Assembly: GCA_964016885.1 (NCBI GenBank)
Contig: OZ024740.1
Coordinates: forward strand, 54,002,001 to 54,066,000
Reading direction: 5' to 3'
Origin: Eledone cirrhosa
Lineage: Eukaryota
DNA: 64,000 nt
Part shown: one piece after another, positions 8,142 to 62,800 of the stretch
How the letters are laid out: every line of letters begins with the position of its first letter
How positions within the stretch are numbered: position 1 is the stretch's first letter
Program-made: the position numbers and the translations under genes
Notes under the pieces: generated by a model
Seen by the model: the letters and a program-made list of their open reading frames with translations, nothing else
Told to the model about the DNA's origin: nothing
Database searches by the model: none

Positions 8142-9382
8142 TACGGGGTAACAAATAATAGTTAAATGCAGTCCACTTAGGTAAAGTCCAGTTATGTTAT
8201 TCCAGGTAGTGGATGATATTAACGCTTGGCTTGGTTTGACTCAACAAGGCGTTTTCATAGTGATGCTGCGGGTATGCCGTAATTCCTATGTTGTAAACAC
8301 TTGGAGTAATAATAAATCAGGAAAGAAGGTTGACATGGTTTGCTATACAAAAAAGGTTTAATCACATAGCTTACATTTGTTTCACTGAGCTGTTAGGTCT
8401 AGAGATCGCTATTCGCTTATTTTCGCGCTACTCGATCGCCAATACAAAATTATAACCAGTCAGATCTTCGGAGCATGCGAGAATGAAGAAAATACACAGG
8501 CAAGAAAAGAATAGAATATACAGGCTACTATATGAAGTAGTAATGGCATTCAATTAGAACAATAACAACAATTACAACAATGCTATCAATAAATTATTTA
8601 AGGAGACCCTGACATTACTACTACAATGTAACTTTACCTTCTTTTTGCCATAATTACAATTAGCACGCTTATCTCTTTGCATGTATGTATATTTTTGTAC
8701 GAGTGTATATTGATGTGTATATATGTGTCTATGTACACATGCATGTGTATATATGTATATATATATAAATATATATATATATATGTGTGTGTGTGTGTGT
8801 GTGTGTGTGTGTGTGTGTGTGTGTGTGTGTGTGTGTGTGTGTGCGTAAATATATGCGTATATTACTTCGTTAACCTCTGTATTAACTCAACATCTATTTG
8901 TCCCACTCATGTATACTATTGATGATGAAGAGAAAGACTGTAAACAGTAGCTTATCTTTAAAATTTAAAATTGATATACACTTCGATACTCTGTACATGC
9001 CATACGCTTTCTTTTGCCTCATGACAGCTAGTTTTACACGCCGTAACGTTAGATACATTATATACCCCCACCTAAGTAATGTCAGGGTCTCCTTAAATAA
9101 TTTATTGATAGCATTGTTGTAATTGTTGTTATTGTTCTAATTGAATGCCATTACTACTTCATATAGTAGCCTGTATATTCTATTCTTTTCTTGCCTGTGT
9201 ATTTTCTTCATTCTCGCATGCTCCGAAGATCTGACTGGTTATAATTTTGTATTGGCGATCGAGTAACGCGAAAATAAGCAAATAGCGATCTCTAGACCTG
9301 CCAGCTCAGTGAAACAAATGTAATCTATGTGATTAAACCTTTTTTGTATAGCAAACCATGTCAACCTTCTTTCCTGATTTAT
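8142..9382 (-). mobile_element. Fold-back PLE-derived element in (TA)n
   Basis: About 308-bp inverted arms 8312-8619 and 9075-9382, unpaired tail 8142-8311, hammerhead-like motif in the arms. Confidence 0.75.
9217..9330 (+). ncRNA. Atypical type I hammerhead-like motif (U4C core, long stem II)
   Basis: CATGCT-CCGAAGA-TCTGACTGG...CCAGCTCAGT-GAAAC-AAAT-GTA; the inverted copy at about 8363-8479 has AGCTATG closing stem I. Confidence 0.4.
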
Positions 9383-9469
9383 ATGTATATATATATATAT
9401 ATATATATATATATATATATATATATATATATATATATATATATATATATATATATATATATACATATA

Positions 9470-9627
9470 TAAAATAAAATAAATAAGTCAAATGTTTAAA
9501 ATTTGACATATTTATTTATTTTATTTTACATTACTCCGGAGTAACCAAACCAACCTTCTCACTTCGTCGTGTGCTCCAATCTGCATACTGAGGTGTTGGT
9601 ATACAACCAACATATACTCAAAATTTA
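9470..9627 (+). mobile_element. Mini fold-back plus tail element in (TA)n
   Basis: AAAATAAAATAAATAAGTCAAAT / ATTTGACATATTTATTTATTTTATTTT hairpin, then a tail ending CAACCAACATATACTCAAAAT; related minus-strand copy at 41235-41320. Confidence 0.55.
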
Positions 9628-9654
9628 TATATATATATATATATATATATATAT

Positions 9655-9849
9655 ATAGGAACCAGTAAGACCCCGACAGCTGAGCTCAAGCCGTCTCGAC
9701 GGCTAATTCTGGACTCAGAATTAGCCGTCGAAACGGCTTGAGCTCAGCTGTCGGGGTCTTACTGGTTCCTATTACCCACTCTACTACCTCAAGTATTGAG
9801 TACTTTGGTGCGTTATGGTCCACCTGGTTCCTTACCACATTTCCTTCGT
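9655..9849 (+). mobile_element. About 195-bp hairpin plus tail non-autonomous PLE derivative
   Basis: 57-bp arms 9655-9711 and 9716-9772 (1 mismatch, 4-nt loop), tail 9773-9849 homologous to the 3' end of the PLE at 15410-15488; both flanks (TA)n. Confidence 0.85.
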
Positions 9850-9871
9850 TATATATATATATATATATATA

Positions 9872-59529: not shown

Positions 59530-59740
59530 ATTGTTTCTACTTTTGGCACAAGGCCAGCAATTACACAGTGTATTACTGGTCAAATAATAATAATAATAGT
59601 TTCGGATTAGGGACAAGGCCAGTAATTTTGGGGGAGAGGAAAGTCAATGAAATCGACCTCAGTGCATTACTGACATTTTCTTTTATCGACCCGTAAGGAT
59701 GGAAGGCAAAGCTAACCTCGGCAGGATTCGAACTCAAAAT
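59530..59740 (-). mobile_element. SINE family A pieces (two tails)
   Basis: TTGTTTCTACTTTTGGCACAAGGCCAGC and a second copy reaching GGATTCGAACTC. Confidence 0.8.
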
Positions 59741-59754
59741 ATTACGTTGCAGCC

Positions 59755-61885
59755 CATTATGTTACTGGCCACAAAGACTGACAGAGAGGGGCCAATACAA
59801 TAACTGGGACAGTGTGGATTTACAAACTTCGAGTAAAAATGATACAACATAACAAATAACCATACAATTATAACAATTAAAATGTCACATTAATGAGAGT
59901 ATCACTCAGGAGTGAATCAGGAACCCCATTCATCTTAAACCACCCTAATTTCCAAGAGCACAATTGGTGTACGCCCCTCTCCTCTCCAAACTAGCCAGCT
60001 TACAACCACATAGTCGAAGTCGGCCCATACAAATGGGTCATCTACGTTACAATCACACACCTTTTAACAAATATAATGAAAGCAGCACTTCCCTGTCCAA
60101 CCTCAACTTACTTTCTAAGTGGAACTGGAAAAAGTTGATGAGGGATTGGATGAAGCAAAAAGTGTCTGTCCTTTCTGTTGCATCCATCACACAACCTCTT
60201 TCGTTAAAACTACTAGGCAGAAGTAAACTGCCTGTTATTCCCGGCCAAAAGAAGGCGGCGAGGCGATTGTCACGAAGAACGTGACTGATAGCCGGATCTC
60301 TCCTACAGGTGATAATCTCTATTCGATAAAACTCCACAAGTCAGTAATGCACAGACACTGGATGAATGTGTGCAGAACGGTTTGGTCGCTCTGTGCGCAA
60401 CTCGACCAAGTCTGCCTAACAACACTCCCGTGCCCATAGAGTTTATCTCAAACCGGCAGTGCCAAGCGAGGGATTTCTGGAAATTATGCATAGTCCCCAG
60501 CTCGAAAGTCCACCGGGACAGATTTGCTAATTCGTTCTTGTCGACGCCTAGAATCTCTACGAGAGCGTGGTCGTTCATTCTCTATAGATTTCTAGAGTGG
60601 AATTTCCACTGACGACATTGTCTGTCTGCTAGAGAGTAGTAAGCGCTTGGCAACATTCCTGATGCCAAATACCCAGTCTCGGTCTCTTCTAGTCAAAGAG
60701 ACTAGTTAATGAAAACTTGTCTGAAAAAACGGTGACCACACCTTTTCATCGTTTAGGAGTATCTGAGTATTCCGTAGCCTCAGCACATGTTTGCGCATCA
60801 TGAGCCACAGCTTCCACCCCGCCGCATACACACACCTCGCCCCGCACAAAGAATGCTTATAGTAGATGGAACGCCTCAGTGATGGAATCTGTCAGTTTCA
60901 CAAGAAGTTGAAGAGCAGGTATTCCAAATTGGTGATCCGTGATAGGGGCCAAAGCACGATGGTCAGGCGGTAATTGATGACGAACGCGTTCGCCATCTCT
61001 CCCTGACTTTACAGGGATAGCTCCCCCTTGGCCCATTTCTGGGTGAGTGTGAGCACGCTGATCGTTACCTAGAGAGAGTTCTTATCCACGTGGAAGTCTG
61101 GTTCAAACCAAACCCCGAACAACTTCACCAGTCCGTCCATGAAGCGTTCGACGACGTTGTCGATCGGCATGGATTTGCCTCACTAGTTGCTGAGTTACAA
61201 ATCCAACAACTTTTCAGGCTTCAGTTTTGTTCTCGTCAATCATTCCTATTCCTCTAGGAAGTTGTCGACCATCTCCATTTGCTAGGTATTTGTCACCATC
61301 ACGGTGACGCCGTCCACATATGCTCTTACACGTCCCGGTTCGAGCAGGATGCGCTGCAACAGTTCTAGGTTCAGCAGCAATGGCTTGAGAGTCAATATGT
61401 ACAGAAGGAAAGAGAGAGGTCATCGTTGATGAGCGAGCGTGCGATCTGGAACGGTTCCGAATGAGGTACACCTATCAGGTACTGCTGCATTGCAGCAACC
61501 CAACCACTAAACACGGGACCGAAGCCGGCTGTCTTGAGGGTAGAATCCAAATATAGATGGTCGACCGTATCGAAAGCCTTCGGTTGATCTAAATTGATTA
61601 GAGCCCCACCAAAGCCAGGTTTCTTCCATAACCTCTCTATGATGTAACGCATAAGGTGGAGGTTGTCGAGTATGGACCTGTGGGGATTGCGCAGGTGTGC
61701 GTTCCTCTTACCAAGCTGTCGTAGACAAGCACCCACTTTGTTACTAGAAACTCGGCCAACATCTTAAACTGTCAGTTTAGCAGAGTTTGGGGCCTGAAGT
61801 TGTCTAAAACAGACCTCTTATCTCCATTATCAGCGAAATTATGCGCCGACACACAACACAAATTACTACCGTTCTGCTGCTAGTC
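59755..61885 (-). mobile_element. Older 5'-truncated Tx1 copy of the same family as 183-5919
   Basis: LDNLHLMRYIIER...GFGGALINLDQPKAFD, NFQKSLAWHC, QSLINFFQFHLE; 3' UTR 59762-59840 aligns with 207-290. Confidence 0.88.
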
Positions 61886-62597
61886 CCACAAAATTCCAAA
61901 GTGCCTCCTAGATGAATGAAACAAAGACAAAAGAGAAGAAAAAAGGCATGAAGTAAGATATCGTGTTAAAAAAAGAAACCCATATATACATTATATGTGA
62001 GTGTGTTGTGTGTGTGTGTGCAGAGACAAGTTTCTTATATTTTAGTAACAAACATAAAATCGCTCAATACATGTTCTAAAAGTGTAATATAACTTAATTT
62101 ATGTGAGATGAAAATGATTAACACACCCTAACGATGGTTTCGACCGGCTGCTCCTTCAAACGACCATAAAAGTAGTAGCGTGGAAAAGGAAGAATCTAAT
62201 TCAGAATAGGTGGAGTAGAAATTCTAGCTCATCTGGTCAAGTATATGTTATAGATCGTCGGGTGTCGTCTATAAATATATCAAGTAGCCAGATGAGATAC
62301 TTCAAGCCATCTTATCCGACGATTTAACAGTTACGCCAATTTACCTCGCTGGACTAGTCCATTATTTATCGAACCCAAAAAGAGTATAGGTGAATTGACC
62401 GCTTCGTCTATGTGTCTGTGCGTATTTCTGTGTCTATGTACTCACACACACACACACACACACACACACACACACACACACACACACACACACACACACA
62501 CACACACACACACACACACACACACACACACACACACACACACACACACACACGCGCGCGCACACACACACACACACACACACACACATATATATAT

Positions 62598-62800
62598 ATA
62601 TGAACCAATTTAGAACCCCGACGGCTGAGCTCCGGCCGTTCGAAAAGCTAGATCTGAACTCAGTTCGCATCTATCAGCTGAAACGGCCTGAGCTCAGCCG
62701 TCGGGGTCCTGAATTTATTCATATTACCCACTTTACTATCCCAAGTATCGAGTACTCTGGTGAGTAATGGTCTAACTGGTTTTTACCACCTCCAATCTGA
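62598..62800 (+). mobile_element. Diverged hairpin plus tail PLE derivative (9655 family)
   Basis: CCCCGACGGCTGAGCTC / GAGCTCAGCCGTCGGGG arms, tail TTACCCACT...GAGTACT...TACCAC. Confidence 0.75.

Follow-up and report, generated by a model that had tools for sequence, protein, structure and literature searches.

Twin bulged hairpins predicted to set where reverse transcription begins in Hydra-clade Penelope-like elements of Eledone cirrhosa

Here we describe a small RNA structure predicted at the ends of fold-back repeats in a 64-kb stretch of the Eledone cirrhosa genome (C1:54,002,001-54,066,000 of the 3.0 Gb assembly, contig OZ024740.1; hereafter, the window), which is AT-rich and dense with (TA)n microsatellites. 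Our analysis suggests that the motif TYGAGTRCTT (box 2), found in the tails of these repeats, and an ACTC word lying upstream of it (box 1) are the two strands of a bulged hairpin that probably positions the start of reverse transcription in Penelope-like elements of the Hydra clade and in their non-coding derivatives. Uninterrupted copies carry this module twice (H1 and H2), 60-80 nucleotides (nt) apart and 3' of a hammerhead-like core. Copies adjoin (TA)n at one of two places: tail-less copies stop 0-8 nt before H1, and tailed copies 0-7 nt before H2.

The question addressed here is what fixes the internal start sites of Penelope-like elements, and hence their tail and fold-backs. The module represents a candidate signal of 25-40 nt with a defined fold, two copies, clade-wide conservation and natural compensatory variants; moreover, it marks the true ends of abundant and often misannotated repeats, with more than 20,000 tails in this genome, and connects non-coding families with their presumed mobilizing protein. 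The conserved twin start-site hairpin is a new candidate cis-element within a known mechanism.

Results

Copies end at two places beside (TA)n

A preliminary description of this stretch had claimed that the inverted arm of the fold-backs stops at, or within a few nt of, a TA or TAT just before a TACTC-like word, and this could be read directly in families A, C and E. In family A, the direct arm reads GGTTCCTAT^TACCCACTC at 9770-9772 (^ marks the breakpoint), and the mirror arm reads GGTTCCTA and then enters (TA)n at 9656; the breakpoints of family C are CGTATAT^CTACTCC near 24401 and GTATTTA^CTCC near 26644, that of family E lies near 52837, and that of a minus-strand fold-back near 8311. A TA, TAT or TATA patch is present at each junction mapped. 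Tail-less tandem copies share the breakpoint, as had been proposed, one copy stopping at 37159, the point where its sister copy runs on into the tail at 36641; two further arms, with ends at 37205 and 37504, also agree in where they stop. The claim extended to 9531 and about 8305 (minus strand), where it held in part: an ACTCC-type word is found at both breakpoints, with the second box decayed at 9531 (TCGTGTGCTC) and none recognizable at 8311. The tail of the latter fold-back (8312-8619 / 9075-9382), at 8085-8311 on the minus strand, starts with ACTCC and runs for about 170 nt to the next (TA)n, and is either a decayed or a variant tail.

One copy per family was used as BLAST query against 864 kb of sampled sequence, made up of 464 kb surrounding the window, 200 kb elsewhere on C1 and 200 kb of C2. 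The matches ended at two places only, namely the tail end, or one point 5' of the motif that is followed by (TA)n. This point lies before the motif by 23 nt in family A (6 copies), 7 nt in family C (5 copies), 23 nt in family D (5 copies; 26 nt in 1 copy), 48 nt in family H (2 copies), 26-27 nt in family B (2 copies) and 29 nt in family E (1 copy). Across families the offset to the motif thus ranges from 7 to 48 nt; the constant is a breakpoint 0-8 nt 5' of the ACTC(C/T) word. Tailed and tail-less ends occur in families B, C, D, E and H as in A, which amounts to two discrete 3'-end classes a few tens of bases apart, as expected of a Penelope-like tail. Exact anchors of 18-19 nt combined with box 2 gave 0 matches each for tailed copies of two tail-less families, the anchors being copy-specific.

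For a census of family A ends, all (TA)n flanks were aligned to one reference of 300 nt; 49 matched, of which 33 reach the junction and 16 do not. Eleven of the 33 junctions lie 5-10 nt before the first ACTCT (H1) and 20 at CCTTCGT^, 0-6 nt before H2; that is, 31 fall within two short intervals (6-7 nt) and 2 elsewhere. Among the 11 inverted pairs of family A in the 864 kb sample, 8 combine one tailed with one tail-less arm, 0 have arms alike and 3 are unclassable. About half of the pairs would be expected to be alike if the arms were independent, so that 0 of 8 is a hint that the sites are used as a pair; such paired use in family A fold-backs is speculative.

A motif shared by dissimilar families

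The window holds 8 exact copies of TYGAGTRCTT where 0.49 would be expected, and 0 of 100 shuffles contained at least 8. Three further sites had been listed with these (15434, 62748 and, on the minus strand, 34677); each is one base off, yet their context is the same as that of the exact sites, the one-mismatch class overall being barely enriched in the window (22 vs 13.9 expected). The distance from motif to (TA)n, previously given as 30-65 nt, is 28-67 nt at nine of these 11 sites; the other two, 29419 and 49068 (both minus strand), have no (TA)n downstream and are not terminal tails. The copy at 49068 is probably internal or decayed. That at 29419-29428, reading ACTAC-gcg-G-TT-GAGT-GCTT, is a second motif copy 150 nt beyond the hairpin at 29566..29603, at twice the usual spacing.

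Enrichment in a larger sample, which had been named as a test of the motif, was found at two scales. The pattern TTGAGTRCTT-N30-60-(TA)6 gave 22,524 forward matches in the whole genome vs 642 with a backwards control pattern (overlapping TA registers inflate the count for the reverse strand), and in the 864 kb sample GAGTRCT lies within 120 nt in 62 of 1366 usable (TA)n flanks, the reversed word in 2 and the reverse complement in 27. These GAGTRCT-carrying flanks form 18 clusters unjoined by BLAST, about 11 of which have the arrangement in common and otherwise nothing, and the proposal that dissimilar families share the motif is thereby upheld: about 11 mutually unalignable families carry motif tails abutting (TA)n. 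The density of motif-bearing flanks is uneven in the sample, the C2 block being nearly empty. An unbiased 7-mer enrichment in (TA)n flanks was dominated by compound microsatellites; after filtering, GAGTGCT appeared in 9 clusters vs 2.4 expected, an underpowered comparison.

The motif and the upstream word covary as a bulged hairpin

From 5' to 3', the hairpin module begins with RCUCY, continues through an upper stem and loop that vary between copies, and closes with R, a two-base UY bulge, GAGY and RCUY. In 58 distinct modules set side by side, GCUC pairs with GAGC, base 5 of box 1 pairs with the base before the two-base bulge, and the bulge is UU, UC or UA; the upper stem is free in sequence and its pairing is kept (GGU/ACC, AGU/ACU, GCC/GGU, GCA/UGC, GUAC/GUAC, CCCAC/GUGGG, GCCG/CGGC). 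With the alignment anchored on box 2 only, pair 5 is C-G in 33, U-A in 23 and other in 11 of 67 modules from the metagenome loci described below (2x2 table 33/1/2/23, Fisher p 5e-13).

A covariance model was built from 10 equal-length metagenome modules, none of them from the Eledone cirrhosa genome, and yielded 117 matches in 78 metagenome loci at E<=1, 109 of them on the sense strand. Pairing cells make up 98.1% in the metagenome alignment vs 85.2% in shuffles, and both-side changes 86 cells vs 27.8 (reached in 0 of 500 shuffles), with compensatory changes in 4 of 8 pairs; when the partner was slid by 1-3 columns, pairing fell to 12-55%. This metagenome-derived model finds window tails of families A, C and F (E 6e-06 to about 2), and gave 52 matches in the 864 kb sample plus the tandem array L189 (Table 1). 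Among 41 distinct rows from this genome, pair 1 is A-U in 25, G-C in 14, G-U in 1 and unpaired in 1, with a covariation score of 0.345 vs 0.151 in shuffles (0 of 500), so that the ACTC/GAGT stem is the local A-U form of the GCUC/GAGC stem. This stem had been put forward as a possibility, to be checked for covariation, and both this genome and the metagenome modules now support it, each with values that none of the 500 shuffles reached.

Two other pairings were considered and dropped: an AAGTA/TACTT mini-hairpin inside the family A motif, which is absent from other families, and self-pairing of the motif between two RNAs, in which the commonest core, GAGCACUC, has two central mismatches.

Uninterrupted copies carry a second hairpin

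In coding elements, H1 and H2 lie just 5' of the ATG of the open reading frame (ORF). The coding copy of family D, at locus L034, has an upstream pseudo-long terminal repeat (pseudo-LTR) consisting of a hammerhead-like core, 70 nt, ^ACTCC-agtcccacaaact-G-TA-GGGT-GCTT (H1, ending TAGGGTGCTT), a tail finishing in ...cacctcctaca^, then ttaactt, GCTCC-ttaacg-G-TT-GAGC-GCTT (H2, ending TTGAGCGCTT), 50 nt and the ATG. Its 3' terminal copy ends ...cacctcctaca^(TA)n, that is, it stops where the pseudo-LTR runs on, and the second module thus lies just beyond the tail. The same holds for family A: 2 of 15 genome matches to a pattern of the tail end plus the motif within 45 nt continue CCTTCGT^TATCTA-GCTCC, and in a tandem array of this family (L189) each tail is followed by GCTCC-tattcccgta-G-TC-GAGC-ACTT, only the last unit stopping CCTTCGT^(TA)n. 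The non-coding 240-nt unit of this array retains both hairpins, and by eye no CUGANGA...GAAA hammerhead core was seen in it; the array may be the master locus from which this family, the commonest with tails, derives.

The tail consequently consists of H1 plus a spacer, with a length of 68-98 nt where both ends are readable, and H2, being beyond the tail, is absent from ordinary insertions; at the DNA level, uninterrupted copies run on through H2, past both sites. A start before H1 would produce a tail-less copy without a hairpin, presumably immobile afterwards, and a start before H2 a tailed copy keeping H1 only. Only copies that retain H2 (tandem arrays and pseudo-LTR elements) could yield tailed offspring, in line with how seldom H2 follows a family A tail among the genome-wide pattern matches.

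The coding partner carries the marks of the Hydra clade

Locus L034 contains a decayed ORF (~1845-4242, one frameshift) 5' of a family D tail, and a full HMMER search with this ORF returned 8751 relatives at E<=0.001, typically of about 700-727 amino acids (aa), with full-length ones at 697-727 aa; a separate search for homologous proteins with this ORF gave none. Pfam gave no match for it or for 7 full-length relatives and nothing useful for 22 ORFs upstream of tails, and a PDB sequence search gave nothing relevant. The Hydra clade is marked by DKT, a CxCX5C linker instead of CX2-5CxxC, the lack of CCHH in the endonuclease core, RWK close to the N-terminus and a CxxC near the end, and its members insert into (TA)n and carry hammerheads, according to the relevant passages of Craig et al. 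(2021; PMC8557442). L034 has DKT in place of DKG (HSDKTNNLY), a CxxC near its end and, in a single ORF, a GIY-YIG-like block (LIYECK...TYFGST) C-terminal to the reverse transcriptase. The linker reads CNCRIKNKC in L034, CSCSDKLNC in P0008 and CNCMDPSNC in P0009. CCHH is absent from the endonuclease core, with one Cys between GIY and YIG in L034 and none in P0008; RWK is found in P0008 (RMRWKAF) and, by hand translation, as a decayed RLRWT in L034. Insertion is into (TA)n. On these sequence marks, the coding partner is assigned to the Hydra clade of Penelope-like elements.

Hammerhead-like CUGANGA...GAAA cores precede the breakpoint by 60-70 nt in families B, C and D and by ~190 nt in the 36215-37167 family; the window has 9 such cores vs 3.0 expected. 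None of them is scored by the Rfam hammerhead models, even at E 10. Rfam searches of the window (at gathering score and E<=1), and of L034 1-5450 and window 26440-26740 (E<=10), returned neither a hammerhead nor any other plausible family; the sole matches were to microRNA models, by microsatellites resembling them. The tail motif was also considered as a hammerhead ribozyme in its own right and rejected, as the tails have no CUGANGA/GAAA core and no Rfam match.

The module recurs in other organisms

Public metagenome contigs scanned with an alignment of six relatives yielded 78 loci, whose proteins are ~35-45% identical to the query. Within 260 nt 5' of the ATG, T-N-GAG-Y-R-CT-Y is found in 38 of the 68 loci whose ORF spans 500 aa or more, twice in 10 of them; box 2 lies at ~20-35 and ~85-105 nt from the ATG and is nearly always TYGAGCACTY after GCTCY. 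When a (TA)n-ending copy was compared with the intact pseudo-LTR on the same contig, the junction fell at ^TAYA(N2-3) in 5 of 5 loci, followed by GCTCY in L117, L123, L141 and L159 and by GTCTCC in L178; it lies before the first module in L117, L159 and L178 and before the second in L123 and L141. At L141 (2620-2690 and 5120-5190), an inverted hairpin module of another element was also observed beside (TA)n at the element end, and thus tailed fold-backs or neighbouring insertions occur in other organisms too.

Discussion

Proposed mechanism

We propose that the reverse transcriptase would bind the hairpin on the RNA, one handle per start site, that the 3' end of the nicked (TA)n target would anneal to the adjacent UA patch, and that cDNA synthesis would begin at this patch, internal to the RNA. 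If both target strands were used, one from each site, the products would be head-to-head copies with their 3' ends outward, which is the arrangement observed. A comparable behavior is known for the anole Poseidon element PAc, whose protein starts reverse transcription in vitro at two adjacent internal sites; its genomic tail corresponds to the interval separating them, cutting and extension take place on both DNA strands, and RNA 3' of the start sites, narrowed to a 172-nt stretch, is required (Frangieh et al., 2024, in the passages on initiation; PMC11167929). A further step, which we regard as possible and put forward only tentatively, is that the twin hairpins dock a reverse-transcriptase dimer, the H2 and H1 protomers priming opposite (TA)n strands on their UA patches; if true, this would explain at once the tail, its one-sidedness (8 of 8 family A fold-backs) and the head-to-head copies by which this class of retroelements stands out.

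Several points weigh against a start-positioning hairpin. Binding and priming are inferred from sequence, and in the anole element the start site was reported to lack homology to the cut DNA (PMC11167929, same passages), unlike the TA patch here. Folding is predicted to be weak, at -3 to -9.3 kcal/mol (z-scores -0.2 to -2.9), and the stem is missing from 2 of 12 minimum-energy folds. In the metagenome set, the four lower pairs do not vary and are hence uninformative; the pair counts come from alignments fitted to the model and number sequences, not events, and the C-G and U-A states of pair 5 largely track the H2 and H1 types, which may leave few events. Box 2 is lacking near the ATG in 30 of the 68 metagenome loci, where many contigs are short upstream and variant boxes exist. 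Finally, a very young and very abundant hammerhead family in the window, represented by the outward-facing inverted pair 26771-27106 / 29634-29969 (97-98% identical copies, 1979 first-look candidates, textbook hammerhead core CTGATGAAGGACTAGCGTCCGAAA), has neither hairpin nor tail; all 30 of its 30 copies examined terminate at the same base, followed by (TA)n, (CA)n or (TACA)n. Hence not every (TA)n fold-back of this genome has the module, and the young family may ride on a different retroelement clade.

Alternative explanations

Copy ends alone cannot separate an internal start from an RNA end, and the hairpins might instead be RNA 3'-end signals, with cleavage or termination just 5' of each, followed by ordinary 3'-end priming aided by the UA patch; in the anole, RNA-seq read ends do fall on the start sites (PMC11167929, same passages). 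We consider this unlikely, given that longer RNA templates yielded the same dominant product in vitro, so that initiation in that element is internal (PMC11167929, same passages), that an RNA cut 5' of its signal would no longer contain this signal, whereas H1 persists in tailed copies, and that the tails match no known ribozyme family in Rfam.

According to a second alternative, the core GAG-YR-CTC is a near-palindromic site in duplex DNA, recognized by the endonuclease or the zinc-finger linker, possibly as a dimer, and would draw copies to old tails, with tandem and inverted arrays as the result. The variants GAGTACTC and GAGCGCTC are indeed perfect palindromes, and the Penelope endonuclease of Drosophila virilis needed tail sequence for recognition, as recounted in the relevant passages of PMC11167929. 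A duplex site leaves unexplained, however, the persistence of upper-stem pairing through free sequence change (GGU/ACC, AGU/ACU, GCC/GGU, CCCAC/GUGGG), the covariation of box 1 with box 2, with G-U pairs present, and the strand specificity of the model matches (109 of 117), all of them marks of a single-stranded fold; in addition, the commonest core, GAGCACTC, is not palindromic. We thus judge a duplex site to be quite improbable.

That the twin hairpins serve as a 5' leader for ORF translation, for instance by cap-independent entry on ribozyme-cut RNA, with their proximity to copy ends a by-product, would agree with their position 20-105 nt 5' of the ATG in coding elements; it is very hard to reconcile with their retention in non-coding families and with copy ends that fall only a few bases from each hairpin, in families and organisms that are unrelated. 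Inherited similarity from one ancestral element without present function, compatible with all carriers found belonging to or riding on one clade, can practically be set aside, as motif flanks are unalignable between families and metagenome proteins are only about 35-45% identical, and nonetheless the 10-mer and box 1 persist and pairing is preserved, with compensatory changes.

Relation to known systems

Long interspersed nuclear elements (LINEs) of the stringent type and their short interspersed nuclear element (SINE) partners share a short structured 3' signal, which is located at the RNA 3' end and, as far as is known, copied into every insertion. As in those systems, autonomous and non-autonomous elements here share a short structured signal and differ in the rest; unlike in those systems, the hairpin is situated on the 3' side of the start, and the copy omits some or all of it. 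Telomerase RNA has an internal template with flanking structural elements. By analogy only, the DNA 3' end would here align to a short internal RNA patch beside a protein-bound helix; unlike in telomerase, there is no repeat addition, and the helix is on the 3' side of the start. Penelope-like and telomerase reverse transcriptases are related (PMC8557442, relevant passages).

The closest parallel is PAc, which resembles the elements described here in its two 3'-end classes with the tail between them, in the use of both target strands and in a start region tens of bases 3' of the hammerhead (PMC11167929, same passages), here 60-70 nt from the hammerhead-like core in families B, C and D. It differs in having an AC-rich stem-loop inside the ORF, a 30-40 bp tail and, as noted, no homology between start site and cut DNA, in contrast to the duplicated, sequence-conserved bulged hairpin 5' of the ORF, the tails of 68-98 nt and the UA patch matching (TA)n in our elements. 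With the Hydra clade as described by Craig et al. (2021; PMC8557442, relevant passages), they share the clade marks, (TA)n insertion, and inverted and tandem partial copies; the words hairpin and stem-loop have 0 occurrences in the main text of that paper, whose supplementary sequence files S1 and S2 lie outside this check. Metazoan non-LTR retrozymes (Cervera and de la Pena, 2020; PMC7229834) are similar in that family A masters are ~240-nt ORF-less tandem repeats, and unlike in that the family A unit shows no hammerhead core by eye; the relevant passages of that paper contain no mention of (TA)n targets or hairpins.

Fold-backs, the one-sided tail, (TA)n targeting, hammerheads and two internal start sites are already described (PMC8557442, PMC11167929). 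No earlier account of the element had been known, and this applies to the hairpin: we found no published description of a conserved duplicated hairpin at Penelope-like start sites and, among the papers searched, none on Penelope with the motif strings, and literature on Penelope-like elements, hairpins and initiation from 2021 on contained nothing relevant among the matches listed. It does not apply to the tail and the two internal start sites, published for another clade.

Features and other observations in the window

Table 1. Coordinates of tails, arms, hairpins and repeats (window positions unless a locus is given; ^ marks the junction).
Feature	Position (strand)	Details
Exact TYGAGTRCTT	9796, 11724, 24418, 26658, 52869 (+); 29419, 48485, 49068 (-)	
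Family A fold-back, 118-nt palindrome	9655..9772	inverted tail-less arm 9655-9713; direct arm 9714-9772; outer end in (TA)n 9626-9657
Family A tail, 77 nt	9773..9849 (+)	begins at putative start site 1 (CCTAT^TACCC); ends at putative start site 2 (CCTTCGT^TATATA)
Hairpin H1, family A	9778..9805 (+)	box 1 ACTCT 9778-9782; ACT 9783-9785 pairs with AGT 9792-9794 (upper stem); A9795 pairs with T9782; TT bulge 9796-9797; GAGT 9798-9801; ACTT 9802-9805; covariance model E 6.5e-06
Family A tail	11700..11777 (+)	H1 11706-11733, E 6.3e-06; then (TA)n 11778-11835
Family A tail	15410..15487 (+)	H1 15416-15443; box 2 CTGAGTACTT (one mismatch); then (TA)n 15488-15538
Diverged family A tail	62724..62805 (+)	H1 62730-62757 (ACTTT ... 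TCGAGTACTC); fold-back arms 62598-62724
Family A tandem array, three 240-nt units	L189 1101-1790 (G000:C1:27009497-27010186)	both hairpins; no ORF
Family C direct arm and tail	24290..24487 (+)	hammerhead core 24300-24340; breakpoint 24397-24401; H1 24404-24427; (AT)n from 24488
Inverted tail-less arm of the preceding	starts 22192	beside (TA)n
Family C direct arm and tail	26486..26730 (+)	hammerhead core 26537-26578; breakpoint 26642-26644; H1 26644-26667; (AT)n from 26731
Inverted tail-less arm of the preceding	26276-26434	
Family E tail	52838..52906 (+)	box 1 ACTCC 52838-52842; box 2 52869-52878; then (TA)n
Family E inverted arm, 26 nt	52385-52410	ends at breakpoint of tail 52838..52906
Family B tail, inverted position	34619..34708 (-)	box 1 34704-34708; box 2 TAGAGTGCTT 34677-34686; abuts (TA)n 34469-34618
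Family B tail-less arm	34719..34868 (+)	hammerhead core 34771-34801; ends at breakpoint beside (AT)n
Family F tail	48426..48503 (-)	hairpin ACTCT-ctc-A-TT-GAGT-GCTT 48485-48503; abuts (AT)n 48387-48425
Tail between tandem copies of another hammerhead family	36641..36738 (+)	copies 36215-36640 and 36739-37167; starts CTCC...TTGAGC (decayed box 2)
Second of these copies	36739-37167	tail-less end 37159-37161 beside (AT)n
GCTC/GAGC-type hairpin GCTCT-...-A-TT-GAGC-ACTT	29566..29603 (-)	right after (TA)n(TG)n; E 5.6e-04
Motif copy, almost no loop (ACTC-a-TTGAGTGCTT)	49068..49077 (-)	not beside (TA)n
~190-nt interspersed repeat	1-182, 7694-7887, 33379-33485, 33853-33969, 42840-43034, 44837-45170, 49335-49496, 52438-52631, 59656-59736	

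Besides these elements, the window contains a decayed LINE within a stretch of 50% GC at 471-5252 (minus strand), with matches to RVT_1 (E 6.5e-14) and to the AP-endonuclease-like Exo_endo_phos (E 1e-04), and a partial copy of it, 74-78% identical, at 59974-61672 (plus strand). The ~190-nt interspersed repeat is present in at least 9 copies on both strands, 78-93% identical and unrelated to the tails, and a decayed, interstitial (CCCTAA)n telomere-like array lies at 50495-50639.

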